From positions 1 to 64,000 of the forward strand of contig NZ_MWQY01000009.1 of assembly GCF_002087085.1 (NCBI RefSeq): DNA of 64,000 nucleotides, in the 5' to 3' direction. This document shows, one piece after another, positions 40,190-60,269 of the stretch. A program made the translations under genes and the position numbers. The notes below the pieces were generated by a model. It was given only the letters and a program-made list of their open reading frames with translations, ran no database searches and had not been told where the DNA came from. Within the stretch, counting starts at the first letter, position 1. Every line of letters starts with the position of its first letter.

Positions 40190-40348
40190 ATGACCAGGTA
40201 CATCTGCACCAACTGCGGTTACATTTATGACCCGGAACTCGGCGACGACACCCAGGGAATCCCTCCGGGAACTCCCTTTGAGGATCTGCCGGAGGACTGG
40301 ACCTGCCCCATCTGCTACGTGGGAAAAGAACTTTTTGATCCGGTATAG
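40190..40348 (+). CDS. rubredoxin (52 aa), not in the ORF track
   Basis: [60 protein letters not shown]. Confidence 0.93.
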
Positions 40349-40366
40349 AGGGAAGATATAAAAATA

Positions 40367-40389
40367 CCCCTGGGCCGACGGACCAGGGG
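40367..40389. terminator. hairpin between the convergent rubredoxin genes
   Basis: CCCCTGG...CCAGGGG with an A-tract on the left. Confidence 0.55.
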
Positions 40390-40413
40390 CTGTCTGATAC
40401 GATTCAGAGGAAT

Positions 40414-40575
40414 CTACTCCTCGGGAGAAAAATCTTCCTTGCCTACTCCGCAAACAGGACAGGTCCAGTCATCGGGGAGGTCTTCGAAAGCCGTTCCGGG
40501 TTTGATTCCATTATCGGGGTCACCTTCTGCGGGATCGTAGATATAACCGCAGGCATCACATACATATCGCTTCAC
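40414..40575 (-). CDS. rubredoxin
   Basis: [12 protein letters not shown]...[13 protein letters not shown] start at 40575 after AAGGAG. Confidence 0.95.
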
Positions 40576-40591
40576 ATCAGACTCCTTATTC

Positions 40592-40966
40592 TCAGGATTT
40601 CCATAATCCGTGAACATTGCAGTGCTCACGGGCACTTACATTATCGGCGCTAATGCAGAAATTTGCAACCGGTTCATCACCTGGTTTCAGGTACTGAATA
40701 TAGGAAACACCGTCTGCAATGAGCTCAATCCACTGGATATGATGCTCTTCGGTCATCGGGTGTATTGTACTGCCTACGGTTACCTTGAAACCGTCGGCGG
40801 TCTTTTCAATTACCGGAACATGCTTCTCCGTCGTCTTGTCGGCGGTCTTTTCCTCCAGCAGGGTCATAGGCTCCCCGCAGCAGACCAGCTCGCCTACACT
40901 GCCATAGAGTACTTCCACGATGTTTCCGCATTGCTCACATTTGTACACTTCCATTCTTTTAGCCAT
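40592..40966 (-). CDS. dfx: desulfoferrodoxin (2Fe superoxide reductase)
   Basis: YKCEQCGN...[34 protein letters not shown]. Confidence 0.95.
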
Positions 40967-41035
40967 AGGAATCCTCCGTTCTATTATATCTCTGCTCCGG
41001 CCTTGTCTGAACCGGAGCTGAAAACCAGAGTTACG

Positions 41036-41431
41036 TTATTTATCCTCAGCAGAGCATTCAGCGCAGACACCTTCCAGTACAAGAGTTCCGCCATTTATGT
41101 TCACGCTTTTAAGAGACTCGGAATCTATAATTTCCGTCCATGCCGGAGAAGTCCCGTTCTTCCACTTCAAATCCGAAACCTGACGGCAATGGGTGCAGAA
41201 AAAATGGGGATGTATTGCCGGATTCGGGTCGAAATGGGCATGATCACCACCGACCTCCAGACGCTGAATGATCCCCTTGTTTGCCAGTACATCAAGGTTC
41301 CGGTATACAGTTCCGAGACTTATGCGGGGAAGAATCTGCCGTACTTCCGAGTAAATAGTGTCAGCACCCGGATGATCGGTATGAGTATGCAGCTGTTCCA
41401 GTATTACCTTTCGTTGTATGGTAGTTCTCAT
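41036..41431 (-). CDS. Fur-family repressor, probably PerR-like
   Basis: TIQRKVIL, HPGAD, SLGTVYRNL, HPHFFCTHC, GVCAEC; heads the dfx-rubredoxin unit. Confidence 0.88.
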   Translation of the reverse strand: MRTTIQRKVILEQLHTHTDHPGADTIYSEVRQILPRISLGTVYRNLDVLANKGIIQRLEVGGDHAHFDPNPAIHPHFFCTHCRQVSDLKWKNGTSPAWTEIIDSESLKSVNINGGTLVLEGVCAECSAEDK

Positions 41432-41452
41432 GATTAATCAGCGCCTTAACAG

Positions 41453-41499
41453 GTAGGAATTGTTATTGACAATATAGGAAGAAACAGCGGATCTGTCAA
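41453..41499 (-). promoter_or_regulatory. promoter of the fur/perR-dfx-rd unit with a possible Fur/PerR box
   Basis: TTGACA-17-TATATT on the minus strand, followed by an imperfect 7-1-7 element TAGGAAT-T-GTTATTG (41453-41468). Confidence 0.55.
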
Positions 41500-41531
41500 A
41501 TCTATTTTTACTTTTTCAGCGGATTATCAGA

Positions 41532-42182
41532 TTATTTTACCGAATACTCCACAGAGATGATCCCCGACAGATCAAGCTCCCGTTCCGATTCAGTACCGTC
41601 ATTGAGAAGGCTTATGCCGACCAGTATCCCCGGAAGGTCTCTGTTCATACGTATGTCCCTTATCAGGCAGTTTACGGAAAGCGTTTTTTCTCCGTTGAAG
41701 AAATCAACCTGCACTGGACGGGAACTGAGCCAGGCCTCACCTATTCGCTCCAGCTGTTCCCAGTATGCAGGATTAACCTCCTTGTCCTCCGCGTCGAGGC
41801 AATCGGAGGCGCTGTCGAGTTGCTTTCCCAGGGCGGGAGAAAATGTTTTGACGAAAGAGGAGAGTTTTCTGATTGCCGCAGCCCCTTCGGGGAAGCGATA
41901 GAGAGAGTTTTCAGCAAAGTATCTGAGGCCAAGATAAAAGCTTAAACCTTCAAGGAGTCCTATATGTCCCAGTCGGGTGGATTGGGAAGACTTGATTCCT
42001 ACCCGAAAATCCTGTTCCCACAGGGGAATACGGGCGCTCAACTCGTCGATATAACGTCCAGCCGTAGCCCGGTGCACGCCAAGCCGTCTGGCGATTTCCG
42101 CCCTCCTCAGTCCCTCGGGATGAGAAAGCAGAAGAAGTTCCAGCTGGTTCAGTCGTTCACTTTTGTTGCCTGCATATTTCAT
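41532..42182 (-). CDS. HTH + degenerate WYL-like transcriptional regulator lacking the WCX domain
   Basis: SERLNQLELLLLSHPEGLRRAEIARRLGVHRATAGRYIDEL winged HTH; helical linker; LERIGEAWLSSRPVQVDF...RELDLSGIISVE WYL-like ends; start taken at ATG 42182. Confidence 0.7.
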   Translation of the reverse strand: MKYAGNKSERLNQLELLLLSHPEGLRRAEIARRLGVHRATAGRYIDELSARIPLWEQDFRVGIKSSQSTRLGHIGLLEGLSFYLGLRYFAENSLYRFPEGAAAIRKLSSFVKTFSPALGKQLDSASDCLDAEDKEVNPAYWEQLERIGEAWLSSRPVQVDFFNGEKTLSVNCLIRDIRMNRDLPGILVGISLLNDGTESERELDLSGIISVEYSVK

Positions 42183-42341
42183 CTCCAAGTCCTTGTCATG
42201 TAGCTGAAAGTTCTCCTCACACAAGTGTCTTTATAACAGTTCAGTGTTGCAGCCACCGCAACAAAGACAAATAAATTACAATTTTTTAGTATTTTGAGTT
42301 ATTTGATAAGTATAACAGTATTACAGCAACTAGTAAAGATA

Positions 42342-42368
42342 ACTATTCCCCGTAGCCCGGGGAATAGT
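42342..42368 (-). terminator. terminator hairpin closing the nqr-like operon
   Basis: ACTATTCCCCG-N5-CGGGGAATAGT perfect 11-bp stem, followed by TATCTTT on the minus strand. Confidence 0.65.
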
Positions 42369-42405
42369 CAGAACATAAAAGGTAAAGAAAGGAGATAAAA
42401 AGAGA

Positions 42406-42876
42406 TCAGGCTTCCTCGCGAGAGACCTCGAGAACTTCAACCAGCGCTTCTGGATCGAGCCGGAAGGCAAAGCCTTTTCCCTCGTAAAAACCATGCTCCC
42501 GGATAAGATGGATATGCAGATCAGAGTACGAGATCTCCCTGCCGTGCTTTTCATTACGCACCGTCGTGGTGGTCTTCTCAAAAAGCCCTTGATCCTCGAA
42601 AGGGCATGGCAGTTTTCCCCTGACCGAATCGACCCGCACAAGAATTCCGGGTTCTACGGTTACAAATTCTCCCAGACCCTTTGCACCACCGTCCCGAAGG
42701 AACTGCATCCTGTTGGCTATAGCCTCATGGCTGACGTCCAGACGCTGGACTGCAGCTTCATCTTCTATGATTATATCCAGCAGGTGTCTCTGGTCCCTGC
42801 CCAGGAAACCTTCAAGAGTCAGTACCCCGGGAGCCATGTTTGCCTGGGCCCGCTTCATTTGCTGGGTTTGCTTCAT
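42406..42876 (-). CDS. uncharacterised soluble protein, last gene of the nqr-like operon
   Basis: Strong SD AAGGAGGAG; motifs GFLGRD, RGKLPCPF, HIHLIREHGFYEG, FRLDP; no family recognised. Confidence 0.75.
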   Translation of the reverse strand: MKQTQQMKRAQANMAPGVLTLEGFLGRDQRHLLDIIIEDEAAVQRLDVSHEAIANRMQFLRDGGAKGLGEFVTVEPGILVRVDSVRGKLPCPFEDQGLFEKTTTTVRNEKHGREISYSDLHIHLIREHGFYEGKGFAFRLDPEALVEVLEVSREEA

Positions 42877-42917
42877 GTTTTCGCTCCTCCTTAAATTCCG
42901 AATAGTAAAACAGCAAA

Positions 42918-44027
42918 TCAGCCGAACTTGTCAAAATAGATAAGATCTTCGGGAACACCGTTTTTCGTGAGGACATTCACGCAGGCGTCGATCATTCCCG
43001 GGCTGCCGCAGAGGTAACCTTCCACATTTTCCCCGCTCTCCATATGGCGGTCCAGCACGTCCGTGATGAGTCCGACCTCACCTTCCCATTCGTCTTCCGG
43101 TTCAGGCTCCGAGAGGGCGGGAATGAACTGAAAGTTGGGCAGTTTCTTTTCAAGTTCCCGCATTTCATCTATCAGGAACAGGTCCTTTTTGGTTCGGGCG
43201 CCGAAAAAGTAGCGCACCCTGCGGTTTATCCCCTTGTCGAGCATATCCAGCAGAATTGCCTTTATGGGGGCCATACCCGAACCGCCGGCGATGCAGACGA
43301 CCTCGCGCTCTGTATCCCGCAGGAAGAAATCCCCGTAGGGACCATTGATGGTTACCTGGTCCCCCTCTTTCAGATACTTATGCACATAGGTGGTACAGAT
43401 CCCGTTGGGGACCAGACGGATCTCGAGTTCAATCTCTCCGGTACTCGAAGGCGGAGAGGACATTGAATAGGCCCGGTAGACAGGTTCATCGGTGAGTTCG
43501 TACTCCGGCACCTGAAACTGGATAAACTGACCGGCGACCATGTCTATGGTGTCCGGATCATTCAGGGTAAGGGTAACTTCCTTGATATCGTGAGTAAGAT
43601 CCCGGATGCGCTTGACGGTTGTTGCATACTCCTTGACGTTGAAGAGTTCTTCCGGAATCCGGATCCGCATATCCTGCTTTACCTTGAGCTGGCAGGAAAG
43701 ACGGACGTTCTTTTCCCGTTCCTCTTCGCTTATCCAGGGCAGCTCGGTGGGAAGATACTGCCCGGCTCCCTCTTCTACAACGACCTTGCACAGTCCACAG
43801 GATCCCCGCCCGCCGCAGGCGGAGGGAATAAAGACCTCCTGTTCCATAAGAGTGCCCAGAAGGGGTTTTCCGCCGCGGACGGTGTATTCGTGATCGTCGT
43901 TGATAGTCAGTTTTACCTCGCCGTAATTCGCGATTGTCGCATCGGCAATAACCATCAACAGGGCAAGGAAAGCGGAAATGGCAGAGACGGCTCCAATACT
44001 GATCAAAAATGCCGACAGGGGAAACAT
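42918..44027 (-). CDS. NqrF-like membrane-anchored 2Fe-2S/FAD/NADH oxidoreductase
   Basis: N-terminal TM helix; SACGGRGSCGLC...RLSCQ; RAYS; IAGGSGMAP; YLCGSPGM; C-terminal FDKFG. Confidence 0.88.
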   Translation of the reverse strand: MFPLSAFLISIGAVSAISAFLALLMVIADATIANYGEVKLTINDDHEYTVRGGKPLLGTLMEQEVFIPSACGGRGSCGLCKVVVEEGAGQYLPTELPWISEEEREKNVRLSCQLKVKQDMRIRIPEELFNVKEYATTVKRIRDLTHDIKEVTLTLNDPDTIDMVAGQFIQFQVPEYELTDEPVYRAYSMSSPPSSTGEIELEIRLVPNGICTTYVHKYLKEGDQVTINGPYGDFFLRDTEREVVCIAGGSGMAPIKAILLDMLDKGINRRVRYFFGARTKKDLFLIDEMRELEKKLPNFQFIPALSEPEPEDEWEGEVGLITDVLDRHMESGENVEGYLCGSPGMIDACVNVLTKNGVPEDLIYFDKFG

Positions 44028-44037
44028 AGGGCCTCCT

Positions 44038-44631
44038 TTAGTTGATGTTGATCATGCCGGTAAAGCCCATGAAGGCCAGAGCCATCATGCCGGTGATAAT
44101 CAGGGTGATTCCGGCCCCCTCCATTCCCCGGGGGACCTTTGCCTTGGCCAGCTTCTGCCGGATTCCGGCCATTGCCATTATGGCGAGCCACCAGCCGAGC
44201 CCCGACCCGAGCCCGTAGAAGAAGCTGGACAGCAGGGTGTACTCCCGGATCACCATGAAGAGACTTACTCCCAGAATCGCGCAGTTAACGGTAATGAGGG
44301 GAAGAAAGATACCCAGCGCAGCGTACAGGGGCTCCGAGACCCGCTCGATTATCATCTCCACCAGCTGTACAAAGGCCGCGATGACGATGATGAATACGAT
44401 AAAACGCAGATAGGTGAGTCCCAGGGGATCCAGAATGAAGTAATAGACCAGATAATTCAGCAGACTGGTAGAGGCCATGACAAAGGTCACCGCCGTCCCC
44501 AGCCCCAGGGAGGTCTTTATTTCCCGGGAAACGCTCAGGAATGAGCACATTCCCAGATAATTTGTAAGAAGTATATTATTGGTAAAAATGGCGCCAAAGA
44601 ATATTGCCATTGCCATACCCCAGTCCATCAT
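44038..44631 (-). CDS. NqrE/RnfA-family membrane subunit
   Basis: NNILLTNYLGMCSFL, LGIFLPLITVNCAILG, MALAFMGF. Confidence 0.92.
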   Translation of the reverse strand: MMDWGMAMAIFFGAIFTNNILLTNYLGMCSFLSVSREIKTSLGLGTAVTFVMASTSLLNYLVYYFILDPLGLTYLRFIVFIIVIAAFVQLVEMIIERVSEPLYAALGIFLPLITVNCAILGVSLFMVIREYTLLSSFFYGLGSGLGWWLAIMAMAGIRQKLAKAKVPRGMEGAGITLIITGMMALAFMGFTGMININ

Positions 44632-45245
44632 GCTTTGGCCTCCTCTTTTTCTTTCAGAAATACCCCTTTAACGACCCAGATAAAGATCGCCAGCATAAAA
44701 AAGGCACCAGGGGGCATAACCATGATCGCCCAGTTTGTCCACCAGTCTCCCATTACCTGAAAACCGAAAATGGTACCCGAACCCATGAGCTCCCGGAAAA
44801 AGGCAATGACCAGGAGTACATAGGAGTAGCCGATACCCGATGCCACTCCGTCAATCAGGGAGATTCCCGGGGGATTGTTCAGGGCAAAAGCTTCGGCGCG
44901 GCCCATGATAATACAGTTGGTTATGATCAGGCCGACATAGGGCCCGAGCTGACGGGAGATATCCGGCAGATAGGCCTTCAGCACAATATCCACAATAATC
45001 ACATAGGAAGCGATAATCAGGGTCTCCGCCATCATGCGTACCCGGCCTGGTATTTTCTTCCGCAGCAGGGATACGGTAAATCCCGAAAGGGTGGTAGTAA
45101 ACAGCACTCCCAGGCTCATTACCAGGGTATTTCGGAAGTTATTGGTAACCGCCAGGGTTGAACATATTCCCAGAATCTGGGCAAATACGGGGTTATCAGC
45201 GCCTATGGCGCCGACGAATACTTTCTTGGCCTGTCCTCTGGCCAT
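44628..45245 (-). CDS. NqrD/RnfE-family membrane subunit
   Basis: NPVFAQILGICSTLAVT, GLIITNCIIMGRAEAFA, RELMGSG, PPGAF. Confidence 0.92.
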   Translation of the reverse strand: MARGQAKKVFVGAIGADNPVFAQILGICSTLAVTNNFRNTLVMSLGVLFTTTLSGFTVSLLRKKIPGRVRMMAETLIIASYVIIVDIVLKAYLPDISRQLGPYVGLIITNCIIMGRAEAFALNNPPGISLIDGVASGIGYSYVLLVIAFFRELMGSGTIFGFQVMGDWWTNWAIMVMPPGAFFMLAIFIWVVKGVFLKEKEEAKA

Positions 45246-45850
45246 CAGCGCACCTCCTTCAGCAGTGCAGCCGCTTCTTCAGGGCTGTCGTTAACCATGT
45301 CCCGGACATAATTTGAGGTATAGGTTGCTCCGGTAATGGCATTGACCTCATTGGGACCGGTATTTTCCGCATCCTCCCTGACAAGGGAAAAGGGCGGAGA
45401 TTTCTGCCGGAACTGGGTCTTGAACCATTCTTCTTCGATACGGGCTCCGAGTCCGGGGGTCTCATTCTGTTTAATGAAGTCTATACCTGTCATGGTCTTG
45501 AGATCTGCATCAAAACCGATCAGGGCCTCAATCTCTCCCCAGAGACCAGGTCCGGTGACGCGAAAAGCGTAGGCCTGGCCTCCGTCGATCTCAAAAACGC
45601 CGGGTTTACCGTCCACCATGTATTCCTTTACATGCTCGGAGTAGACCTGGTTTATCTGATTGTTGCTTTCCGGGACCTGGATACCCGCACTGAAAAGCAC
45701 TGCCTTCTTCAGGAATATGGTCTCGTTCTCCTCCACCAGAGAAGCGGTCTGCAGGTAGATACCCGAGATAGCCGAGATAAAAACCACGGTGAGAAATACC
45801 ATAAAGAGAATGGGATAGACTCTTTCCTTGAAAAACGATACCTCCTGCAT
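45245..45850 (-). CDS. NqrC/RnfG-family covalent FMN-binding subunit
   Basis: N-terminal TM helix, GPGLWG, ETPGLGARI, flavinylation motif ITGATYTS. Confidence 0.9.
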   Translation of the reverse strand: MQEVSFFKERVYPILFMVFLTVVFISAISGIYLQTASLVEENETIFLKKAVLFSAGIQVPESNNQINQVYSEHVKEYMVDGKPGVFEIDGGQAYAFRVTGPGLWGEIEALIGFDADLKTMTGIDFIKQNETPGLGARIEEEWFKTQFRQKSPPFSLVREDAENTGPNEVNAITGATYTSNYVRDMVNDSPEEAAALLKEVR

Positions 45851-46818
45851 TACGCTGCTCCTTCTGCTTTGGCCTTCTTCCGCTTCCGGGTTTCAACTAT
45901 TGTATAGTTTAGAAGGGGGGCAAACATGTTGGCAAGAAGAATGGCGAAGGTGATTCCCTCCGGCCAGATGGAAAAGGTACGTATAAGAACTGTGAGAATC
46001 CCGATAAAAGCCCCGTAAATCCAACGGCCCAGGTTGGTTGTCTGCGCCGACGAAACGGGGTCGGTCGCCATGTACATCATTCCATAGAGAATACTGCCGG
46101 CGAACAGCGCGTAGTGGGGAGGAATGGCCCCCTCGACCCCGGAGAAGAAGAGGATGCTCTGCATGCCAAGAAAACCGAGAATCCCCGGCACCACAATATG
46201 CCAGGAGGCAGTCTTCTGTATCATCAGAATCAGACCGGTTATTATGATCAGCACAGCGGAGGTTTCTCCCAGAGACCCGGCGGTGGAACCGATGAAAAGA
46301 TCCATAAAGGGGACTGCTTTTCCCGCTGCAAGATCAATCAGCGGTGTAGCCTGGGATACCGTATCGACCGCAGGCTGCCAGGCGACAAAGCCTCCAAGGG
46401 CTCCTCCTACGGGCTGCACAAAGCGTGAGGAGAGGTGATATCCGAAGCTTGCGTAGATAAACGCCCTGCCGGAAATCGCGGGATTGAATACATTGCGCCC
46501 GAAACCGCCGAAAACCATCTTTCCGAAGATTACTCCGAAGGCTATGCCCACCCCGGCAATCCAGAAAGGGATTGTGGGGGGAAGGGAGAGGGCAAAAAGG
46601 AAGTTGGTCACAAAGACCGCAGAAGAGACCTTCTGCTTCCCTCCCCTGACAAAGATGTACTCCGATAGAAAACCAACAACATTTACAAACGCCAGAATCG
46701 CAAGGGATCGCCAGCCGTAAAAATAGACCGAAGCGATCACCAGCGGTATCAGGGCATAGACAACCTTGAGCATTATCGGCTGCTTCTGAATAACGCTATT
46801 TATTTTTGCCATATTCAT
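45850..46818 (-). CDS. NqrB/RnfD-family membrane subunit (short, RnfD-sized)
   Basis: GKMVFGGFGRNVFNPA, SQATPL flavinylation site, GSLGETS, MATDPVS, ILLANMFAP. Confidence 0.92.
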   Translation of the reverse strand: MNMAKINSVIQKQPIMLKVVYALIPLVIASVYFYGWRSLAILAFVNVVGFLSEYIFVRGGKQKVSSAVFVTNFLFALSLPPTIPFWIAGVGIAFGVIFGKMVFGGFGRNVFNPAISGRAFIYASFGYHLSSRFVQPVGGALGGFVAWQPAVDTVSQATPLIDLAAGKAVPFMDLFIGSTAGSLGETSAVLIIITGLILMIQKTASWHIVVPGILGFLGMQSILFFSGVEGAIPPHYALFAGSILYGMMYMATDPVSSAQTTNLGRWIYGAFIGILTVLIRTFSIWPEGITFAILLANMFAPLLNYTIVETRKRKKAKAEGAA

Positions 46819-46824
46819 CCCTTT

Positions 46825-46852
46825 ACTATATAAGACTGCTGAGAAATGTCAA
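46825..46852 (-). promoter_or_regulatory. sigma70 promoter of the nqr-like operon
   Basis: TTGACA-16-TATAGT, 6 nt before the ATG at 46818. Confidence 0.65.
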
Positions 46853-47054
46853 TTTAAAGCTATCGACTGCTTCAATATAGATGTTCCTAAAGTTTAACGT
46901 CAAAGAAAAAAGAGAATTTCCCAAGGAGAATTTTTATTAGTACCTTAACGATGAAAGATGTTTGCCGGTAAGACCAATTCTTACTATTTTCATCAGGTTA
47001 TATGCGGCCGGTCCGGCATCTTTCGGAAAACATGCCAGAAAACAGGAGAGTAGA

Positions 47055-47495
47055 ATGACAAAATCGGCTTTTATGCAGGAACTTGAAAACATGCTGGATA
47101 TCGCAAAGACTGCGGTCCTTGCAACGGTCAGCGCAGACGGGTCGCCGGCAATGCGCTGGATGACGCCCTCGGTAATTCGCGGTCGTGCCGGGGCCCTCTA
47201 TGCGGTCACCTCCCGCACCTTCGCAAAAAGCGAACATCTGGCAAAAAACGCACAGGTTCAGTGGCTGCTGCAGAGCAAATCCCTGGACAAAATCATTACC
47301 GTCAACGGCAAGGTCAACATAATCGAAAACTCAGCCATGAAAGCGGAGGTCCTTGAAGCTATCGGGCCACGGCTCCCGGTTTTCTGGCGTGTCAATCCGG
47401 ATCCCGCGAATCTGGTGGTACTGGAAACAGTTGTGACAGAGGGCACCGTATTCATTCCCATGCGGGGCGAAAAGGATACGGTAAAATTCAATTAA
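47055..47495 (+). CDS. pyridoxamine-5'-phosphate-oxidase-like split-barrel flavin-binding protein
   Basis: AVLATVSADGSPAMRWM, TSRTFAKSEHLAKNAQV; start ATG 47055 after AGGAG. Confidence 0.78.
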   Translation: MTKSAFMQELENMLDIAKTAVLATVSADGSPAMRWMTPSVIRGRAGALYAVTSRTFAKSEHLAKNAQVQWLLQSKSLDKIITVNGKVNIIENSAMKAEVLEAIGPRLPVFWRVNPDPANLVVLETVVTEGTVFIPMRGEKDTVKFN

Positions 47496-47509
47496 GCCAA
47501 GGAGGCTCC

Positions 47510-48490
47510 ATGAGTCTGGTAAAAAAATACGGAAAAGAGACGACCCTTTCCCTGCTTCAAAGCATGCTTTTGATGCGACGCTTCGAAGAAAAAGCGGGTC
47601 AGATGTACGGTCTGCGAAAAATCGGCGGCTTCTGTCACCTGTATATCGGCCAGGAAGCAGTTGCTGCGGGGACAATCGGAGCACTGGATTTAAAAAGTGA
47701 TTATATCATAGGCGGCTACCGCGACCATGGCCACGCCCTCGCAGTGGGGATGGACCCCAAGGCGATCATGGCGGAGCTCTACGGCAAGGCCACGGGCTGT
47801 TCAAAGGGCAAAGGCGGCTCCATGCACATGTATTCCGCGGAAAAGCATATGCTCGGAGGAAACGGGATTGTGGGCAGCCAGATTCCCGTCGGCACAGGGG
47901 TAGCCTGGAAAATCAAGTACATGGAAGAAAATGGAGTGGTCCTCTGCTATTTCGGCGACGGGGCCATACACCAGGGCGCGTTTCACGAAAGCCTCAACCT
48001 TGCAAAGATCCACGACCTGCCCATCATCTACATAGTGGAGAACAACCAGTACGGCATGGGCACCGATTTCAAGCGGGTCTCCGCGGTTCATGATCTGGCT
48101 CAGATGGGTTATGCCTACGATATACCCGGCAAGCAGCTTAACGGTATGCAGGTCATGGAGGTCTATGATGAGTTTGTAAACGCCGTCAAAAGCATCCGGG
48201 AAAAACCCCATCCCCTTTTCTACGAAATCAAGACCTATCGCTACCGGGGACATTCCATGAGCGATCCGGCGAAGTACCGAACACCCGAGGAACTTGAAGA
48301 ATACAAACAGCAGGACCCGATATCCATACTCCTCAAACAGATGCAGGAAGAAAAACTCATCACCGAGAAGGAGTACAAGAAGATGGACAACGATATCAAG
48401 GCTATCTGCGACGAGGCGGTGGATTTTGCGGAAAAGAGTCCCGAACCCGAGCTTTCCGCGCTTTACGAAGACGTCTTCGCTGAAGCATGA
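47510..48490 (+). CDS. pdhA: pyruvate dehydrogenase E1 alpha
   Basis: GFCHLYIGQEA, YRDHG, GKGGSMH, GDGA TPP motif, TYRYRGHSMSDP. Confidence 0.96.
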   Translation: MSLVKKYGKETTLSLLQSMLLMRRFEEKAGQMYGLRKIGGFCHLYIGQEAVAAGTIGALDLKSDYIIGGYRDHGHALAVGMDPKAIMAELYGKATGCSKGKGGSMHMYSAEKHMLGGNGIVGSQIPVGTGVAWKIKYMEENGVVLCYFGDGAIHQGAFHESLNLAKIHDLPIIYIVENNQYGMGTDFKRVSAVHDLAQMGYAYDIPGKQLNGMQVMEVYDEFVNAVKSIREKPHPLFYEIKTYRYRGHSMSDPAKYRTPEELEEYKQQDPISILLKQMQEEKLITEKEYKKMDNDIKAICDEAVDFAEKSPEPELSALYEDVFAEA

Positions 48491-48530
48491 CCGGGAAACA
48501 TCTACCACCGCATACAAGGAGGAGGCGAAA

Positions 48531-49514
48531 ATGCCGGTAATTACATTCAGAGAAGCATTACGACAAGCCATGGACGAGGAGATGGCCCGGGACGATCGGG
48601 TCTTTCTGCTGGGAGAAGAAGTCGCCCAGTACAACGGCGCCTACAAGGTAACCCAGGGCTTGTGGGAAAAATACGGAGATAAACGTGTCGTCGACACGCC
48701 GATAACCGAGGAAGGCTTTACCGGCCTCGGGGTAGGTGCAGCCATGGTGGGGCTACGGCCCATTGTTGAGTGGATGACCTTAAATTTTGCCCTGATGGCC
48801 TATGACCAGGTGGTATCCAATGCCGCCAAAACGCGATATATGTCCGGCGGTCAGTTCAAACTGCCTATGGTCATGCGGGGCCCCAATGGTCCGGCTGAAT
48901 ATCTGGCCGCCCAGCACTCCCAGGCGCTTCAGTCCATATTTGCCCATATTCCCGGGCTCAAGGTTGTATCTCCCTCTACCCCCTACGACGCCAAGGGCCT
49001 GTTGAAAACCTCGATCAGGGACGACAACCCGGTAATCTTTCTCGAAGGAGAACTGATGTATGCCTGGAAGGGAGAAGTGCCCGAGGAGGAGTACCTGATA
49101 CCCCTGGGAAAGGCTGATGTAAAGCGGGAAGGCAGCGACGTTAGCCTCGTGAGTTACGGAAAGCCGATGCGGGTAACCCTGGAGGCGGCGGAGAAACTCG
49201 AAAAGGAAGGAATAAATGCGGAGGTAATCGATCTTCGCAGCATAAAACCCCTCGACGAGGAAGCCGTTTACGCTTCGGTACGCAAGACCCACTGCTGTGT
49301 GATTGTCGAGGAGTCCTGGCCCTTCGCGTCGGTGGGTTCCCACCTTGGATGGCTGATTTCCAGGAATGCCTTTGATTATCTGGACGCCCCGGTTGAGATG
49401 GTGGCCTCGGAGGAGGTCCCCATGCCCTACAACCATAAGCTTGAGCTCGCAGTACAACCCCAGGTACCGAAGATTGTCGCCGCCGCCAAAAAGGTCCTCT
49501 ACCTGGACAACTGA
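48531..49514 (+). CDS. pdhB: pyruvate dehydrogenase E1 beta
   Basis: FREALRQAMDEEM, GAYKVT, DTPITE, AAQHSQ, IDLRSIKPLD; start ATG 48531 after AGGAGGAGG. Confidence 0.96.
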   Translation: MPVITFREALRQAMDEEMARDDRVFLLGEEVAQYNGAYKVTQGLWEKYGDKRVVDTPITEEGFTGLGVGAAMVGLRPIVEWMTLNFALMAYDQVVSNAAKTRYMSGGQFKLPMVMRGPNGPAEYLAAQHSQALQSIFAHIPGLKVVSPSTPYDAKGLLKTSIRDDNPVIFLEGELMYAWKGEVPEEEYLIPLGKADVKREGSDVSLVSYGKPMRVTLEAAEKLEKEGINAEVIDLRSIKPLDEEAVYASVRKTHCCVIVEESWPFASVGSHLGWLISRNAFDYLDAPVEMVASEEVPMPYNHKLELAVQPQVPKIVAAAKKVLYLDN

Positions 49515-49539
49515 ATAGAAATATAGGAGAAGCTAGAGT

Positions 49540-50841
49540 ATGGCAGAACAAATATTGATGCTGGCCCTCTCCCCCACCATGGAAGAGGGAACCATAGCAA
49601 CGTGGAAAAAAAAGGAAGGCGACAAGGTATCAGAGGGAGATATAATCTGTGAGGTCGAGACCGACAAGGCGACCATGGATTACGAAAGCATACAGGAAGG
49701 GGTGCTCCTTAAAATCCTCGTCCCTGAAGGTGAAGACGCCGCTGTCGGTGTTCCCATAGCCATTATCGGGGAGGAGGGAGAAGATATCTCCGCCCTCGAA
49801 AAAGAGGCTTCTGAAACCGCCAAGGAGGCGGAAAAAGAAGAGGAAGCTGCCGGGGCCTCCGCGTCAGAAGAAAAGCCTGAAGCGAAGAAAGATAAACAGG
49901 AGAAGCCTGAAACTGCAGAAGACAAGACAGAAAAGGAGAGAGCAGACAAGCCCGCCGCAAAAAAGGAAGCGGTCACCACCGACGGATGGGTAAAAGCATC
50001 TCCCCTGGCCAGGGAGATAGCCCGGCAGAGGGGAATCGATATTGCTGCAATCGAGGGAAGCGGTCCCGGGGGCCGGGTCGTTAAAAAGGACGTCGAGTCT
50101 GCCCCGACCAGAGCCGGACGACCGGCAGCCTCTGGATTTGCACCGGCCCGGGCGGCAGGAGAGGACCGCACGGTCAAGGTCTCCAAAATGCGCAAGGCCA
50201 TTGCCGGCCGTCTGGCGGAATCAAAGTTCACCGCACCCCACTTCTACCTGAATGTCTCGGTCAGGGGCGAAGCCCTTATGGAGGCCAGAAACAGGATCAA
50301 TAAATCCCTCCAGGAAAAGATATCCGTAAACGCCTTTATCATGAAGCTGGCTGCGGAAGCGCTCAGGCGTCACCCCCGGGTTAACGCGGCCTGGGAGGGC
50401 GATACCATCAGGGAGTTCGGATCCGTTGACATAGGATTGGCGGTGGCCCTGGATGACGGGCTGATAACCCCTGTGGTACGAAACTGCGGAAACAAGGGAA
50501 TCGTCGAAATCGACGGCGAACTGAAGGAACTGATCCCCAGGGCTCAGGAAGGAAAACTCGCACCCGAAGAATACAGCGGAGCGGGATTCTCTGTCAGCAA
50601 CCTGGGTTCCTTCGGTATCGAGGAGTTTACCGCGATCATCAACCCCCCGGGATCGGCAATCCTTGCCGTGGGCACCCTGAACAAGGTTCCGGTGGTCCAG
50701 GAAGACGGGAGTCTCGGAACGGGGCTTGTCATGAAGTTTACCCTCTCCTGCGACCACAGGGTAGTCGACGGGGCGGAGGGTGCACGCTTTATGGCGACCC
50801 TCAAAAACAACTTTGAAAACCCCATGTCGGCTCTTCTCTAG
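49540..50841 (+). CDS. pdhC: dihydrolipoamide acetyltransferase E2
   Basis: Lipoyl domain EVETDKATM, ASPLAR E3-binding domain, DHRVVDG catalytic motif. Confidence 0.96.
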   Translation: MAEQILMLALSPTMEEGTIATWKKKEGDKVSEGDIICEVETDKATMDYESIQEGVLLKILVPEGEDAAVGVPIAIIGEEGEDISALEKEASETAKEAEKEEEAAGASASEEKPEAKKDKQEKPETAEDKTEKERADKPAAKKEAVTTDGWVKASPLAREIARQRGIDIAAIEGSGPGGRVVKKDVESAPTRAGRPAASGFAPARAAGEDRTVKVSKMRKAIAGRLAESKFTAPHFYLNVSVRGEALMEARNRINKSLQEKISVNAFIMKLAAEALRRHPRVNAAWEGDTIREFGSVDIGLAVALDDGLITPVVRNCGNKGIVEIDGELKELIPRAQEGKLAPEEYSGAGFSVSNLGSFGIEEFTAIINPPGSAILAVGTLNKVPVVQEDGSLGTGLVMKFTLSCDHRVVDGAEGARFMATLKNNFENPMSALL

Positions 50842-50948
50842 GGAGTGAAGAGATGAAAAAGCGAAAGAACGGGTCCCCGGGCTTTCGCGCCAGGCAGAGC
50901 GGAGCCGGAGGCAGCATGCCGATGGCGACCGTAAGAAAGGAGTACTGA

Positions 50949-52352
50949 ATGAGCGAAATAAGCACTGATCTTGCGATTCTCGGTGCGGGCCCCGGCGGTT
51001 ATGTGGCCGCCATACGGGCCGCCCAGCTGGGTCTCAAGGTAACGATAATAGAAAAGGAAAAGCTCGGAGGGGTCTGCCTTAACATAGGCTGCATTCCTTC
51101 CAAGGCTCTGATTCATCAGGCGGAGATCTTCAGACATGCCAGAGAAGCGGAAGCCCTGGGCATAAAGCTGGACCTCTCGGGCTTTGATTACGGCAGGGTC
51201 TTCAAGAAATCCAGGTCCGCCGCGGACCGGCTCTCCAAGGGCGTCGGTTTCCTGATGAAAAAGAACGAAATTCAGGTAGTTAACGGTACGGGGACTATAC
51301 TGGAGCCGGGCCTTATTGAGGTTACCGGAGCTGAGAACAAGAAAACACAGGTAAAGGCAAAAAACATAATCATAGCCACCGGCTCCCGACCACGCTCCAT
51401 TCCGGGCTTCGATTTTAATGAGAAAACAGTTCTCTCATCCACCGGCGCCCTGATGCTGGAGGAGTTGCCGAAGCGGCTGGTTATTCTTGGTGCCGGTGCC
51501 ATAGGCTGCGAGTTCGCCCATATAATGAGCAGCTTCGGTACGGAGGTTACCCTGGTGGAGATGCTGGACCAGATTCTCCCTGCAGAGGACCCGGATGCAT
51601 CCAAAGTCCTGGCGGCGGACTTCAAGAAACGGAAGATAGCTATCCACGTAAAAACAAGGGCCCTGGGATATAAAGAGACGAAAGAGGGACTCAGCATAGA
51701 GCTTGAAGGACCGGAGGGTAAGAAAAACACCATCACGGCTGATAAATTGCTTGTGGTAACTGGCAGAGTGCCCAACACCGGAGAGATCGGGCTTGAAAAC
51801 CTTGGAATAGCTTCGGAGAAGGGATTCATTCCCGTTGGCGATTTCTACCAGACCACCGTACCCCATGTTTATGCCATCGGGGATGTCGTATCGACTCCCC
51901 TGCTTGCCCACGTGGCCAGCAAGGAGGGAGAAATCGCCGTGGAACATATTGCAGGGCACTCTCCCGCTCCCGGGATCGATCCGAACCTCATTCCATCCGC
52001 CGTCTATACGGAACCGGAGATCGCCAGCTTCGGACTTACCAAAGACAAGGCCATACTGAAAGGTTTTTCCGCAGCTGAAACCAGCTTTCCCTACCGGGGA
52101 GCGGGAAAAGCGGTGGCCACCGAAGCGGCAGAAGGGATGGTGAAGATAGTCTACGATACGGGATCAAAGGAGATTCTTGGAGCCCATATCACCGGCAGCA
52201 GGGCAACGGAGATACTGCATGAGGTACTTCTGGCTAAATCATCTGAACTGCTGCCGGAGGACGTTGCTTCCATGATCCATGCCCACCCGACTCTGTCGGA
52301 AACGGTAATGGAATCAATGAAGATGATAGAAGGGGCTGCCATACATATTTAG
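50949..52352 (+). CDS. lpdA: dihydrolipoamide dehydrogenase E3
   Basis: GAGPGGY, GGVCLNIGCIPSK, GAGAIG, HAHPTLSE. Confidence 0.96.
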   Translation: MSEISTDLAILGAGPGGYVAAIRAAQLGLKVTIIEKEKLGGVCLNIGCIPSKALIHQAEIFRHAREAEALGIKLDLSGFDYGRVFKKSRSAADRLSKGVGFLMKKNEIQVVNGTGTILEPGLIEVTGAENKKTQVKAKNIIIATGSRPRSIPGFDFNEKTVLSSTGALMLEELPKRLVILGAGAIGCEFAHIMSSFGTEVTLVEMLDQILPAEDPDASKVLAADFKKRKIAIHVKTRALGYKETKEGLSIELEGPEGKKNTITADKLLVVTGRVPNTGEIGLENLGIASEKGFIPVGDFYQTTVPHVYAIGDVVSTPLLAHVASKEGEIAVEHIAGHSPAPGIDPNLIPSAVYTEPEIASFGLTKDKAILKGFSAAETSFPYRGAGKAVATEAAEGMVKIVYDTGSKEILGAHITGSRATEILHEVLLAKSSELLPEDVASMIHAHPTLSETVMESMKMIEGAAIHI

Positions 52353-52415
52353 TGGTCCCCGGGGAACTACTTTAGTATATTGATAAGGATTATAAATCAG
52401 TATAAGGAGATAATT

Positions 52416-52922
52416 ATGGAACGATCTGTTTCAACCATGCACGGAAACGCAATAACCCTGGTAGGTCAGGAACTGAAAGTCGGAGACAAGGCGCCGGATT
52501 TTACTGTCCTGGATAATGAACTGATGCCGAAATCCCTGAGTGACTACGCCGGGAAAAAGAAGCTCATCAGCGTCGTGCCCTCCCTGGACACAGGCGTGTG
52601 CGATGCCCAGACCCGCAGATTCAACGAGGAGGCGTCGAAACTTGGCGCTGATGTTGTAATTCTCACCATCAGTATGGACCTGCCTTTTGCCCAGAAGCGC
52701 TGGTGCGGTGCAGCCGGGGTGGATCAGGTAATAACCCTTTCGGACCATCGGGACGCGGATTTCGGACAGCGCTACGGTATGCTGATCAAGGAACTCAGGC
52801 TGTTGAACCGCGGTATTTTCGTTGTTGATGAAAACGACGTCATACGCTACATTGAAACAGTAAAAGAGAATACAAATCACCCCGACTATGATGCCGCGCT
52901 GAAGGCTCTTAAAGCATTATAG
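52416..52922 (+). CDS. tpx: thiol peroxidase
   Basis: [27 protein letters not shown]; start ATG 52416 after AAGGAG. Confidence 0.95.
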
Positions 52923-52963
52923 GTCTCTCCCTGGAAGGAGAGTTCCGGGGAAAAGAGGGATCA

Positions 52964-54160
52964 ATGATTGCGACGAGCTTACGTGATAATGTCTATGCAA
53001 TAACAGTTAACGATCGGACCACAGACCTTTTCGAAGGTCTGTGGCCCATCAGTCAGGAGGGGGTTTCCTACAACTCCTATCTGATTCAGGACGAAAAGAC
53101 GGCCCTGATCGATCTGACCAAGGAGTTCAAAACCGATGAGCTCTTTGACAATGTGGGGATGATCAAGTCCCTGAAAGAGATTGATTACCTTGTGGTCAAT
53201 CATATGGAACCGGACCACACCGGAGCAATGAAAGCCCTCAACCGTCTTAATCCGGATATAACCATCCTCTGCACCCCCAAGGCACGTCCCATGATAGAAA
53301 ACTATTACGGGATTACCGAGAACGTGCGGGAGGTATCCGACGGAGAGGAGATCTCCCTGGGTAAAAAGACCCTGAAGTTCTTCCATACCCCCTTTGTTCA
53401 CTGGCCGGAAACCATGATGACCTATCTGGTGGAGGAGAAAATCCTCTTCTCCTGCGACGGTTTCGGCGGTTACGGAGCTCTTACAGGGGCGATATTCGAT
53501 GACCAGATACGGGACCTGGATTTCTATATCAAGGAGTCCCTGCGCTACTATACGAATATTGTCGCCAAGTTTACAAAGCCTGTCCTCAATGCCATAGAAA
53601 AACTGGCTGACTATCCCATCGAGATTATAGCCCCTTCCCACGGCCTGATATGGCGGGGGAATCCCGGTAAAATCGTGGAACTCTATCAGAAGTGGTCCGA
53701 ATACGGAAAGGGGGATAACGAAAAAGGCGTTACCCTGCTGTACGGGACCATGTATGGAAATACCGAGACCATGATGAACCACGTAGCCAGGGGACTCGGT
53801 TCCGAGGGTGTCCCGGTCGATATCTTCGATGTCGCCCGTACCCATATGAGCTATATCCTTCCCTCCCTCTGGGTGAACCGGGGAGTCATTATCGGGGCCC
53901 CGACCTACGAGGGAAGCCTTTACCCCGCCATGTCCCTGGCTCTGGAGGAGGCATCGATTAAACGCGTATTAAACAAAAAAGCGGCCTATTTCGGCAGCTT
54001 CGGCTGGTCCGGCGGGGCCCTGCGGCAAATACAGAAGATGGTTGAACCCCTGAAATGGGAAATCCTGGACACCCTGGAGTTTCCCGGCGGTCCCACCGAC
54101 AAGGAGCTGGAAAAAGCCTTTGAGTTCGGCGCCGCCTTTGGCCGCAGCATCAAGGCCTGA
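52964..54160 (+). CDS. fprA: flavodiiron protein (FprA, A-type flavoprotein; O2/NO reductase)
   Basis: YNSYLI, NHMEPDH, HWPE, SCDGFG, PSHG, TMYGNT, GSFGWSG. Confidence 0.93.
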   Translation: MIATSLRDNVYAITVNDRTTDLFEGLWPISQEGVSYNSYLIQDEKTALIDLTKEFKTDELFDNVGMIKSLKEIDYLVVNHMEPDHTGAMKALNRLNPDITILCTPKARPMIENYYGITENVREVSDGEEISLGKKTLKFFHTPFVHWPETMMTYLVEEKILFSCDGFGGYGALTGAIFDDQIRDLDFYIKESLRYYTNIVAKFTKPVLNAIEKLADYPIEIIAPSHGLIWRGNPGKIVELYQKWSEYGKGDNEKGVTLLYGTMYGNTETMMNHVARGLGSEGVPVDIFDVARTHMSYILPSLWVNRGVIIGAPTYEGSLYPAMSLALEEASIKRVLNKKAAYFGSFGWSGGALRQIQKMVEPLKWEILDTLEFPGGPTDKELEKAFEFGAAFGRSIKA

Positions 54161-54181: not shown

Positions 54182-54217
54182 AAAACTGCCGGGATAATAA
54201 TTCCGGCAGTCTTTTTT
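54182..54217. terminator. bidirectional terminator between fprA and the DUF190 gene
   Basis: ACTGCCGG...CCGGCAGT flanked by AAAA and CTTTTTT. Confidence 0.75.
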
Positions 54218-55053: not shown

Positions 55054-56796
55054 CTATTTTCGGTAGAGCGGACGGGGGGTGTAATTCGTGTGGAGCAGTT
55101 CGTGGGCCTTCTTGCTGAGAGGCTTGCCGAGGAACTCCTTGTAGATCTGCTTAATCTCCGGGTTCTGGTGGGAACAGCGGATAACGGATTTTTCGTCATC
55201 GGCATACATACCGGCAATCCTTTTCTCACGTACATCGTCGGTTGTGTTGTAGGGCTGTCCGCCACCGGCGATACATCCGCCCCGGCAGGCCATTACCTCG
55301 ATAAAATGGTAGGGAGGCTCTTTTCCCTTCTCCCGGGCATCCTGAATCTCCCGCATAACATCCCGCACATTGGCCATTCCGTGGGCGACAGCCACACGGA
55401 CCTTTGTACCGTCGATGTCCACTTCACCGCGACGGACACCTTCCATACCGCGTACGGCATTGACCTTAACATCCTCCAGCTCTTTCCCGGTAACCAGGTT
55501 GTAGGCGGTTCGGATGGCTGCTTCCATAACGCCACCGGTGTTTCCAAAGATGGTACCGGCACCGGAGTAGCGTCCGATGGGAGAATCGGCTGCTTCATCG
55601 GGAAGGGAGTTAAAGTCGATGCCCAGGGCTTTAATAAGACGTGCAAGTTCCCGGGTGGTAAGTACAAGGTCCACGTCCTGCTGGCCCGAGGAGTACATCT
55701 TTTCGCAGCGGGTAATCTCGAACTTCTTGGCGGTGCAGGGCATGATCGCTGCAGAGAAGATATTCTCAGGCTTGATGCCCGCCCGGTCAGCGTAATAGGT
55801 CTTGGTTATTGCTCCCTGCATCATCATGGGACTCTTGGCGGTTGAGAAGTGGGGAATCATATCCGGGAAATACTTCTCCATATAGTCGGTCCAGGCAGGG
55901 CAGCAGCTGGTTATCTGGGGCAGAGTTCCCCCCTCGGTCAGGCGCTTTACGAGCTCGGTACCCTCTTCCATGATGGTCAGGTCTGCGGAAAAGTTGGTAT
56001 CAAAAACCGCATCCACACCCATCATACGCAGGGCTGCATAAATCTTGCCGGTACTGATGGTACCGGGCGCCATGCCAAAAGCCTCTCCGATGGCAACCCG
56101 CACTGCCGGGGCAATCTGGACCGCGACATGTTTTTCCGGATCCCGTATTGCCCTCATAAGGGTGCGGGTCTCATCTTTTTCGTAAATGGCGCCTACGGGA
56201 CAATGAGCTGAACACTGGCCGCACTTGATACAGGGTGTTTCATTCAGCAGAACATCCCCCGCTCCAGCCATACGGGTTCCATCCCCGCGGCCGATGAACT
56301 CCAGAGCCCATACGTCCTGCATCTGCTGGCATACGTTTACACAGCGTCCGCATTTGATGCATTTTTCGGGGTTAAGAATTATCGACGGGGTTGAATCGTC
56401 CAGGGGAATCTCGGGAACCCGGTGTTCAAAGGGAACATCCCGGATACCGAAGTCCGCAGCCAGGGTCTGGAGTTCACAGTTGCCGTTTCTCGGACAACTC
56501 AGGCAGTCGTTGGGATGGGTGGACATGATCAGCTGGATCACGGTGCGCCGGATCTCGTAGAGCTCCGGATCATGGGTTATTATCTTCATTCCATCCTGGA
56601 CCTGGGTGGCACAGGCTCTGAAGAGTTTCGGGGATCCCTCAACCTTGACAACACATATTCCACAGGCTGCCCAGGCGGGGAGGTCGGCATGATAGCAGAG
56701 GGTTGGAATCTTGATTCCCACCAATTTAGCCGCTTTAAGAAGGGTCGTTCCTTTTGCAACCTCAAGGGGCAAGCCGTTAACCGTTATATTTACCAT
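55054..56796 (-). CDS. [FeFe]-hydrogenase catalytic subunit, group A3 (HydA/HndD-like)
   Basis: H-cluster motifs TSCCPAW, MPCTAKKFE, EVMACRGGCIAGGGQP; N-terminal 2Fe-2S, His-ligated 4Fe-4S and 2x4Fe-4S domains. Confidence 0.96.
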   Translation of the reverse strand: MVNITVNGLPLEVAKGTTLLKAAKLVGIKIPTLCYHADLPAWAACGICVVKVEGSPKLFRACATQVQDGMKIITHDPELYEIRRTVIQLIMSTHPNDCLSCPRNGNCELQTLAADFGIRDVPFEHRVPEIPLDDSTPSIILNPEKCIKCGRCVNVCQQMQDVWALEFIGRGDGTRMAGAGDVLLNETPCIKCGQCSAHCPVGAIYEKDETRTLMRAIRDPEKHVAVQIAPAVRVAIGEAFGMAPGTISTGKIYAALRMMGVDAVFDTNFSADLTIMEEGTELVKRLTEGGTLPQITSCCPAWTDYMEKYFPDMIPHFSTAKSPMMMQGAITKTYYADRAGIKPENIFSAAIMPCTAKKFEITRCEKMYSSGQQDVDLVLTTRELARLIKALGIDFNSLPDEAADSPIGRYSGAGTIFGNTGGVMEAAIRTAYNLVTGKELEDVKVNAVRGMEGVRRGEVDIDGTKVRVAVAHGMANVRDVMREIQDAREKGKEPPYHFIEVMACRGGCIAGGGQPYNTTDDVREKRIAGMYADDEKSVIRCSHQNPEIKQIYKEFLGKPLSKKAHELLHTNYTPRPLYRK

Positions 56797-56829
56797 AGTA
56801 CTGTTCTTCTCCTTATTCTCACCGGGTTC

Positions 56830-58617: not shown

Positions 58618-58618
58618 C

Positions 58619-59011
58619 CTACTTTTCCCCCTTCTCGATGATGTCGACGGCGGGCCGGTCGTAGATATGATCGTTCACCAGCTCATGTGCCATTATATGT
58701 TTGTGAACAATCTTGCGGGCCACCTCGTCATTCACATTCCCGTATATCACCGTCGGCATGCCGGGCATCAGAACTTCCACCGTCGGTTCTGCGTGGCAGA
58801 GCCCCAGACAGCCGGTCTGCTTGACGACAACGTCGGTCAGATTATTCTCTTCCAGTTCATTCAAAAAGGCTTCGTGGGTTTTTCGGGCTCCGGCGGCAAT
58901 ACCGCAGGTTCCTCCACCCACAACAATCTGGATGCTTTTTCCGGAAACATCCCGCCTGTCCATCTCTCTCTTTTTTTGCTCCCGCAGGGCGCGCAGCTCT
59001 TCCAAAGTCAT
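58619..59011 (-). CDS. thioredoxin-like ferredoxin subunit (HydD/HndB-like)
   Basis: GTCGIAAGA, TGCLGLCHAEPTVEV. Confidence 0.88.
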   Translation of the reverse strand: MTLEELRALREQKKREMDRRDVSGKSIQIVVGGGTCGIAAGARKTHEAFLNELEENNLTDVVVKQTGCLGLCHAEPTVEVLMPGMPTVIYGNVNDEVARKIVHKHIMAHELVNDHIYDRPAVDIIEKGEK

Positions 59012-59022
59012 GGTACCGCTCC

Positions 59023-59586
59023 TTATTTCTCTTTACCTTGTATCTCTTCTTCATGGGACGCCATATATCGGCGAACCAGGTTCTGGGAGGCAACACTTTC
59101 CAGCTCTCCCAGAGCATCTGTCAGTTCCGATCGTGTAATCCGGTAACTCCGCTCTCCTGAGCTGTCAAGTACACGGTGCAGCAGAACCGCTTCGTACTCC
59201 GTCGGTTTCAGTACAGCCCCGGCGAATGTTTCCGCCAGGTCTCCGACCGGGGGGGTATCGATATTATCAGCAGGAAAGGAGAAGAAAACCTCCGTGCCCT
59301 TTCCAGGTACTGACTCAATCCTGAAATCCCCGCCGCACTGTTCAGCCGCATGTATCAGAAAGGGAATTCCCAACCCGACCTTTCGTCCGGGGTGCTTTAT
59401 TCCATCGGTGAAATAGGGATCCCGAATCCGGGACAACAGTTCCCTGTCCATTCCTGTGCCGTTGTCCCGCAGGGTGACCGAAATCTCCTCATTCGATTCA
59501 AGGATCTCAACCTCAACCAGGTTTGCGCCTGCTTCGAGGGAATTATCCACCAGATCGATGATAAAATCACCGACGGAAAAATGCAT
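59023..59586 (-). CDS. stand-alone HATPase_c (GHKL) protein within the hydrogenase operon
   Basis: DLVDNSLEAGA (N box), DNGTGM (G1), DPYFT (F), VGLGIP (G2), HIDTPP-like NIDTPPVGD; no HisKA or sensor domain. Confidence 0.85.
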   Translation of the reverse strand: MHFSVGDFIIDLVDNSLEAGANLVEVEILESNEEISVTLRDNGTGMDRELLSRIRDPYFTDGIKHPGRKVGLGIPFLIHAAEQCGGDFRIESVPGKGTEVFFSFPADNIDTPPVGDLAETFAGAVLKPTEYEAVLLHRVLDSSGERSYRITRSELTDALGELESVASQNLVRRYMASHEEEIQGKEK

Positions 59587-60071: not shown

Positions 60072-60236
60072 GCAACCTCCCTTATCATACAATTGCAGTA
60101 TTAGCCTAGCCGCCTGCAGTGTATCGGGAAGCGGCTGTTGTGACAAGTATTTGTTGTCCCGGAGGAATGAAATATTGCGAAATTTGTAGAAATAATCTTG
60201 TCTAAAATACTAATTTTAAGTAACTTAGCGCAGTTT

Positions 60237-60254
60237 ATGTGAACGATTTCACTT
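60237..60254. promoter_or_regulatory. putative Rex operator
   Basis: ATGTGAA-CGAT-TTCACTT versus the consensus TTGTGAA-N4-TTCACAA; in the hyd/rex divergent region. Confidence 0.65.
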
Positions 60255-60269
60255 TATTGAGAAGGTAAC

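Follow-up and report, generated by a model that had tools for sequence, protein, structure and literature searches.

A sixth gene in an NqrA-less NQR-type operon of a spirochaete and a candidate route from NADH to rubredoxin

The nqrBCDEF operon and its sixth gene

The window analysed here, 64,000 nucleotides of contig NZ_MWQY01000009.1 (assembly GCF_002087085.1) from an anaerobic spirochaete, with its nearest counterpart loci in records named Marispirochaeta or Spirochaetaceae, carries on its minus strand the genes nqrBCDEF without nqrA (46818-42918), followed by a sixth operon gene, orf156 (42406..42876), which belongs to no Pfam family. A sequence-only reading of the window had proposed that this operon and the genes around it, about 14 kb in all, form a quinone-free module running from pyruvate through NADH and an ion pump to rubredoxin and O2. 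Annotating the window genes with Pfam and NCBIfam profile searches and scanning the stretch at 36-60 kb, we recovered, in place, all that this reading had listed: two rubredoxins, desulfoferrodoxin, a Fur/PerR-family regulator, the NQR-like operon, a split-barrel gene, pdhABC-lpdA, tpx and fprA. Absent from its list were orf156 and a helix-turn-helix gene (41532..42179, minus strand), both lying between nqrF and perR; the latter gene keeps the same position in the genus and in one other family.

The nqrB-like gene (45850..46818) encodes 322 residues, the length of an RnfD, and is followed on the same strand by nqrC-like (45245..45850), nqrD-like (44628..45245) and nqrE-like (44038..44631) genes and by nqrF (42918..44027), which scores over the TIGR01941 cut-off and encodes a membrane helix with 2Fe-2S, FAD and NAD-binding domains. 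In alignments, the FMN threonines of NqrC (T176, in the motif TGAT) and NqrB (T158), the riboflavin ligands and the four 2Fe-2S cysteines of NqrD (C28/C111) and NqrE (C29/C117) are all conserved, and the full ligand set is present for a path from NADH to FAD/2Fe-2S (NqrF), 2Fe-2S (NqrD/E), FMN (NqrC) and FMN plus riboflavin (NqrB); the genome also has an apbE gene. The acidic residues D132 of NqrD and E92 of NqrE are invariant and, judging from conserved columns, would be equivalent to the Na+-transport residues D133 and E95. Ion translocation by the complex is a prediction from these features.

The subunits NqrB to NqrF are homologous to, and in the same order as, those of the Na+-NQR of Vibrio cholerae (PDB 7xk3, 8a1t), which gave the best PDB matches of NqrB and NqrF. 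What differs, besides the added orf156, is that NqrA is missing (TIGR01936 had no match in the 4.2 Mb, 97% complete source genome; its relatives were not searched genome-wide) and that NqrB is ~90 residues shorter, its alignment to V. cholerae NqrB beginning at residue 130 and the N-terminal quinone helices being absent. As described in PMC10643135, quinone binding involves two N-terminal NqrB helices together with G141, and any other residue at 141 blocks it. In the window F50 takes the place of G141, and glycine occupies this column in none of 46 NqrB sequences of the NqrA-less type; in a wider set it was found in 0/69 NqrA-less, 0/16 Rnf and 4/6 canonical NQR sequences, so that two of the six canonical ones, whose loci were classed by subunit length and identity, are also non-glycine. 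On these alignments the complex lacks the quinone site, and its acceptor is likely no quinone.

With Rnf (RnfCDGEAB) the complex shares the membrane core, and RnfD likewise has neither the quinone helices nor G141 and passes electrons to a soluble Fe-S partner. The input here, however, is NqrF (NADH) and not RnfB, and neither RnfB nor RnfC is encoded in the operon, a full separate rnf operon lying on another contig. A tree of the concatenated B, D and E subunits (IQ-TREE quick search; 41 of 78 rows with only 4 canonical NQR, in place of a FastTree tree of ambiguous root) unites the NqrA-less operons in a single clade (SH-aLRT 98.8) that has canonical NQR as its sister. By the defining features of these two systems the complex is neither a Na+-NQR nor an Rnf, but it probably works like their core.

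Gene order across the genomes surveyed indicates that orf156 is a constant member of the operon. Among 74 loci found with NqrB (15 Rnf, 6 canonical NQR and 53 NqrA-less), orf156 stands right behind nqrF in 41 of the NqrA-less loci; the sequence ends too early in 9, and the gene is absent in 3, from Bacillota. Within 401 sampled Spirochaetota genomes, an NqrF match was seen in 52 (2 of them weak, ~40%), orf156 in 50 and both in 49. Taking 51 NqrF-positive genomes from this sample together with 6 of the family, 54 of the 57 hold orf156, directly behind nqrF in 49 and on separate contigs in the remaining 5, and throughout this spirochaete neighbourhood survey it is found behind nqrF, never behind nqrB. 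A Bacillota sample of 401 genomes gave a match in the centre genome alone. At two Bacillota loci without orf156 (L036:8466-9660, L051:8418-9608), the operon is divergent from an encapsulin gene and a ferritin-like cargo gene.

The predicted structure of the orf156 protein is confident (pLDDT 94.8), and the model has no Foldseek match at E<=0.001 and a best VIA Z of 2.6, which does not in itself prove a new fold. Its Atlas clusters are all hypothetical, one with DUF7919 on 13% of members. Since no cysteine or histidine is invariant in the alignment of its homologues, orf156 is not itself a redox carrier, and a role as metal or redox carrier was discarded. Distant orf156 domains also occur as tandem repeats in long proteins (P0001, P0081, P0111, P0139), with no Pfam match and outside the tested nqr context.

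Links between orf156 and rubredoxin

Two C-terminal rubredoxin domains were seen among the best 150 orf156 representatives, and a follow-up search gave 47 proteins, in 22 of which orf156 is fused to a full rubredoxin (PF00301) in a protein of ~210 residues (one is a 169-residue fragment). The fused proteins are 46-91% identical pairwise, and the four rubredoxin cysteines are invariant in the 21 aligned. The fused gene lies behind nqrF in all three loci fetched. At locus L099, a single strand carries fprA-nqrB-nqrC-(insert)-nqrD-nqrE-nqrF-orf156::rubredoxin, the flavodiiron gene being placed 12 bp before nqrB. A structure model of the fusion (pTM 0.72) does not fix the relative placement of the two domains. 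Singleton fusions of orf156 (to rubrerythrin-like P0050, nitroreductase, aldo-keto reductase, AhpC and biotin carboxylase) were not counted, as possible read-through or assembly chimeras; P0050, in which orf156 is joined to a rubrerythrin/ferritin-like domain, is unreplicated. A search for long orf156 fusions found none, which is weak evidence.

The gene neighbourhoods carry a similar signal. Of 54 spirochaete genomes, 22 have a rubredoxin gene no more than 10 kb away from orf156, compared to 0 of 53 for rnfC, in counts where kin are not independent and where fragmented assemblies depress both numbers; in 13 of the 22 it is directly behind orf156 on the same strand. The linkage spans 6 of 22 spirochaete families and is more than chance. 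Outside the spirochaetes, where the signal weakens, rubredoxin was found in 5/53 loci and any O2-defence gene in 10/53, against 0/15 Rnf and 0/6 canonical NQR loci (L099 was left out of this count and L009 refiled). Of the 57 NqrF-positive genomes, 56 have rubredoxin and 55 a flavodiiron protein. The earlier claim that the complex reduces rubredoxin gains support from the fusion, the fprA-nqrBCDEF-fusion operon, the neighbourhood enrichment over the Rnf control and the loss of the quinone site, and we consider rubredoxin the probable functional partner of the complex.

Neighbouring units and their predicted control

Consensus promoter and terminator scans divide the locus into four predicted transcription units: nqrBCDEF-orf156, perR-dfx-rd, PNPOx-pdhABC-lpd-tpx-fprA and the metH tail. 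Two sigma-70-like promoters of nqrB (46825..46903, minus strand; 11/12 and 10/12), with -35 cores and most -10 letters conserved in 6/6 genus sequences, precede the first unit, and a strong predicted intrinsic terminator with a 13-pair stem (42340..42370, minus strand) lies directly 3' of orf156. On the same strand, the perR-dfx-rd unit comprises the Fur/PerR-family regulator gene (41036..41431; Pfam/NCBIfam), with its own predicted promoter at 41499-41471, desulfoferrodoxin, a superoxide reductase (40592..40966; over the TIGR00320 cut-off), and, as last gene, rubredoxin 2 (40414..40575; Pfam), which is the likely partner of the nqr-like complex. Rubredoxin 1 (40190..40348, plus strand; Pfam) is convergent with rubredoxin 2, its strand being opposite to that of the other defence genes. 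Because it starts 11 bp past metH, and metH adjoins it in 5/5 genus relatives, it likely belongs to the metH unit. Placed behind this cobalamin methionine synthase gene, it could serve MetH reactivation.

Divergent from nqrB, the plus strand carries a PNPOx-like split-barrel gene (47055..47495; Pfam), pdhA (47510-48490), pdhB (48531-49514), pdhC (49540-50841) and lpdA (50949-52352), these four all over the NCBIfam cut-offs for pyruvate dehydrogenase (PDH), then the thiol peroxidase gene tpx (52416..52922; NCBIfam) and the flavodiiron gene fprA (52964..54160; Pfam), one of three in the genome, with a predicted terminator at 54185-54210. Beside these genes, at 55054-60926, lies a cluster for an NADH-dependent group A6 FeFe hydrogenase, which also includes a histidine-kinase-like gene and a gene for a Rex-like regulator. 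Metatranscriptome contigs (4 runs, 2 studies) match parts of nqr, pdh, tpx/fprA and dfx, and one spans the nqrF-orf156 junction, although contigs prove neither transcription nor co-induction.

The conserved linkage by which the proposed module was to be judged is found for some of its parts and not for the whole. Besides rubredoxin, PDH recurs: in 11 of 29 genomes, belonging to five families, a pdhA over the cut-off is found no further than 12 kb from nqrF, compared to one near rnfC. Outside family f54, 26 of 55 genomes gave no over-cut-off pdhA, and PDH is therefore not required. In all linked loci seen, across five families, the PNPOx-like gene immediately precedes pdhA, and it accompanies pdhA, not nqr. 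The complete gene set is mostly genus-level, and the entire 14 kb as one module was rejected beyond the genus.

Between the divergent nqr and pdh units, a PdhR/FadR-box-like motif (46967..46980, plus strand) is present in 6/6 genus sequences, and a second copy lies on contig C24 of the source genome near 25385, right before a gene that we take to be pyruvate phosphate dikinase-like. The two copies point to a pyruvate-sensing control rather than control by PerR, and the box before the pdh unit and the one at the dikinase-like gene might mark a spirochaete pyruvate regulon. The motif in the window corresponds to the 12 bases on the right-hand side of the pdhR operator in E. coli (PMC7660256). 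E. coli couples PDH to NADH oxidation and offers an analogue for pyruvate-sensing control. Inspection of the six genus sequences by eye showed no element common to the promoters of perR and nqrB; co-regulation of nqr by PerR was set aside, with no shared PerR-type element at the nqr promoter.

A candidate NADH:rubredoxin oxidoreductase and its alternatives

Our preferred interpretation, to which we give a probability of roughly 0.5, is that nqrBCDEF-orf156 encodes a membrane NADH:rubredoxin oxidoreductase that would conserve energy and feed O2 and superoxide reductases. NADH would enter at NqrF and cross the core as in NQR and Rnf, along the path reviewed in PMC12174285. The orf156 protein would sit on NqrF at the cytoplasmic face, replacing NqrA, and keep rubredoxin near the riboflavin of NqrB, the site where RnfC takes electrons in Rnf. 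Electrons would then exit from this riboflavin to rubredoxin, which once reduced would pass them to desulfoferrodoxin, rubrerythrin and FprA, PDH being the source of NADH once O2 disables pyruvate:ferredoxin oxidoreductase. With NADH at -320 mV and rubredoxin at about -60 to +40 mV, the drop is ~0.3 V, sufficient for one ion per electron. The source genome encodes three flavodiiron proteins, rubrerythrin, rubredoxins, superoxide reductase and pyruvate:ferredoxin oxidoreductase, and no cytochrome bd was found in it at 97% completeness. The sequences establish the cofactor sites, the membership of orf156 in the operon, its fusion and the linkage; how rubredoxin docks, the direction of electron flow, the ion and the role in the cell are inferred. 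The downstream carriers and terminal enzymes would be those of the clostridial O2 defence, in which a soluble NADH:rubredoxin oxidoreductase (NROR; 3klj) serves rubredoxin and FprA, desulfoferrodoxin or rubrerythrin; there, the NADH entry enzyme conserves no energy.

Several observations weigh against this interpretation. The NqrB position D397, likewise associated with Na+ transport, is Asn in this genus (N304 here), where Asp is found in 41 of 46 sequences. The 14 kb comprise four predicted units instead of a single operon, and fprA lies within 12 kb in only 6 of 55 genomes, five genus members and G124, by a count that used 14 of the listed matches, chosen by eye because they scored best or lay on the same contig as nqrF. 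The three Bacillota loci and genome G154 lack orf156. Rubredoxin linkage is missing from 16 of 22 spirochaete families, one family (f20) supplies 12 of the 22 linked genomes, and an even sample of Verrucomicrobiota had rubredoxin nearby in 0/15 loci. The fusions form one clade, which includes one unfused member, and are thus a single event by this tree, kept across 46-91% identity. In three of the 15 Verrucomicrobiota loci (L103:7451-8942, L104:7554-9132, L116:7090-8562), the NqrF paired with orf156 is without its membrane helix, and no nqrBCDE lies within 16 kb, the rest of those genomes not having been searched; in two more (L107, L108), orf156 stands without any nqr gene nearby.

The anchorless pairs suggest that NqrF is the partner of orf156, which may hand electrons from NqrF straight to rubredoxin without pumping, and such a pair is possibly a soluble NADH:rubredoxin reductase derived from the pump. 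If this held in general, NqrF and orf156 would reduce rubredoxin directly in the cytoplasm, and the core would feed some other acceptor, for example a periplasmic one or a flavin. The position of orf156 after nqrF rather than nqrB fits this, as does the resemblance of NqrF to the oxygenase reductases BenC and MmoC, whose partners are soluble. It is nevertheless an unlikely account, given that the full operon keeps the riboflavin site and the two FMN sites along which electrons would return to the cytoplasm, so that an acceptor on the cytoplasmic side is needed, and that fprA heads the entire operon at L099. Similarly unlikely, in our view, is that the complex pumps but hands its electrons to a different soluble carrier (flavodoxin, electron transfer flavoprotein, ferredoxin or a borrowed RnfC), the rubredoxin and defence genes being nearby through shared redox regulation or to clear flavin-made superoxide, and an NROR-like enzyme reducing rubredoxin. 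No soluble NROR gene is found in the window, as the sequence-only reading had stated: the 36-60 kb scan gave none, and a whole-genome PF07992 search shows LpdA as the sole full-length member there. That reading had also named a soluble NROR elsewhere that accounts for all rubredoxin reduction as the finding that would count against it, and on this point it is partly undercut by an NROR-like flavoprotein of 391 residues on another contig (C75:115567-116742), with 3klj, the NROR of C. acetobutylicum, as best PDB match (E 8e-29) and orthologues in 5/5 genus relatives. The match is weak (104 bits), near ferredoxin reductases and below every NCBIfam cut-off, and 34 of 56 genomes holding the complex have no NROR-like match at E<=1e-20. 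RnfC, present in 53/57 genomes, and the patchiness of the rubredoxin linkage would also suit another carrier, but no other carrier gene recurs beside the operon (14 loci, flanks read by eye), and co-regulation alone hardly explains a domain fusion.

The quinone-free part of the sequence-only reading need not extend to the organism. On contig C34:85461-89328 (= L078:7462-11329), mqnL (over its cut-off), an MqnP-like prenyltransferase gene and ubiX lie beside an NMT1-type ABC transporter, and menaquinone is possibly made by salvage of an imported precursor; this cluster adjoins a second FeFe hydrogenase. These late menaquinone genes tell against a quinone-free organism, and with some UbiA-family gene in 40 of the 57 genomes holding the complex, the latter could be an ordinary NADH:menaquinone pump minus a non-catalytic NqrA, served by menaquinone from imported naphthoate. 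We regard this as very improbable: the quinone helices are missing, G141 is replaced in 46/46, and mqnA/D, mqnC and cytochrome bd were not found in the source genome. Moreover, 17 of the 57 genomes (85-98% complete) have no UbiA-family gene, and all 17 have orf156.

The NqrA-less layout itself was already known, from Pseudothermotoga thermarum, P. lettingae and Clostridium ultunense, where the acceptor was called unknown (PMC4148951, PMC5924567). These clusters, and that of Salinispira pacifica, share the five-gene layout and belong to fermenters that also have Rnf; as far as these accounts go, they hold no sixth gene, rubredoxin fusion, rubredoxin acceptor, loss of the quinone-site glycine or biochemistry. 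According to its description (PMC4511686), the aerotolerant spirochaete S. pacifica can reduce medium containing O2; it has neither quinone nor oxidase nor catalase, and no NROR was detected in it. Its locus tags place PDH at 2176-2179, the five-gene NQR-like cluster at 2184-2188 and rubredoxin at 2197, which that account, as far as it goes, does not link, its authors proposing NADH oxidase candidates for O2 reduction instead (PMC4511686). We found neither a sixth gene nor a rubredoxin acceptor for NqrA-less NQR in the open-access literature, supplements aside. The new support for rubredoxin as the partner lies in the fusion, the gene neighbourhoods and the loss of the quinone-site glycine.

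Publications have called the acceptor of NqrA-less NQR unknown since 2014, and there is now a specific, testable candidate together with a missing subunit. A wider proposal, which we hold only tentatively and at somewhat less than even odds, is that the complex represents a third Rnf/NQR branch, an ion-pumping NADH:rubredoxin oxidoreductase with a docking subunit of new fold, through which quinone-less and cytochrome-less fermenters of several phyla would respire O2 via rubredoxin and flavodiiron protein, with PDH as the source of NADH. If a rubredoxin reductase of this kind exists, one membrane core would have a third output mode (NAD+, quinone and rubredoxin), and the pared-down pair of NqrF and orf156 would itself be a soluble rubredoxin reductase of a new kind. 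It would also account for O2 consumption by spirochaetes in which both oxidase and NROR are missing and, if the complex pumps, O2 scavenging in aerotolerant fermenters would be a minimal respiration without quinones or cytochromes.

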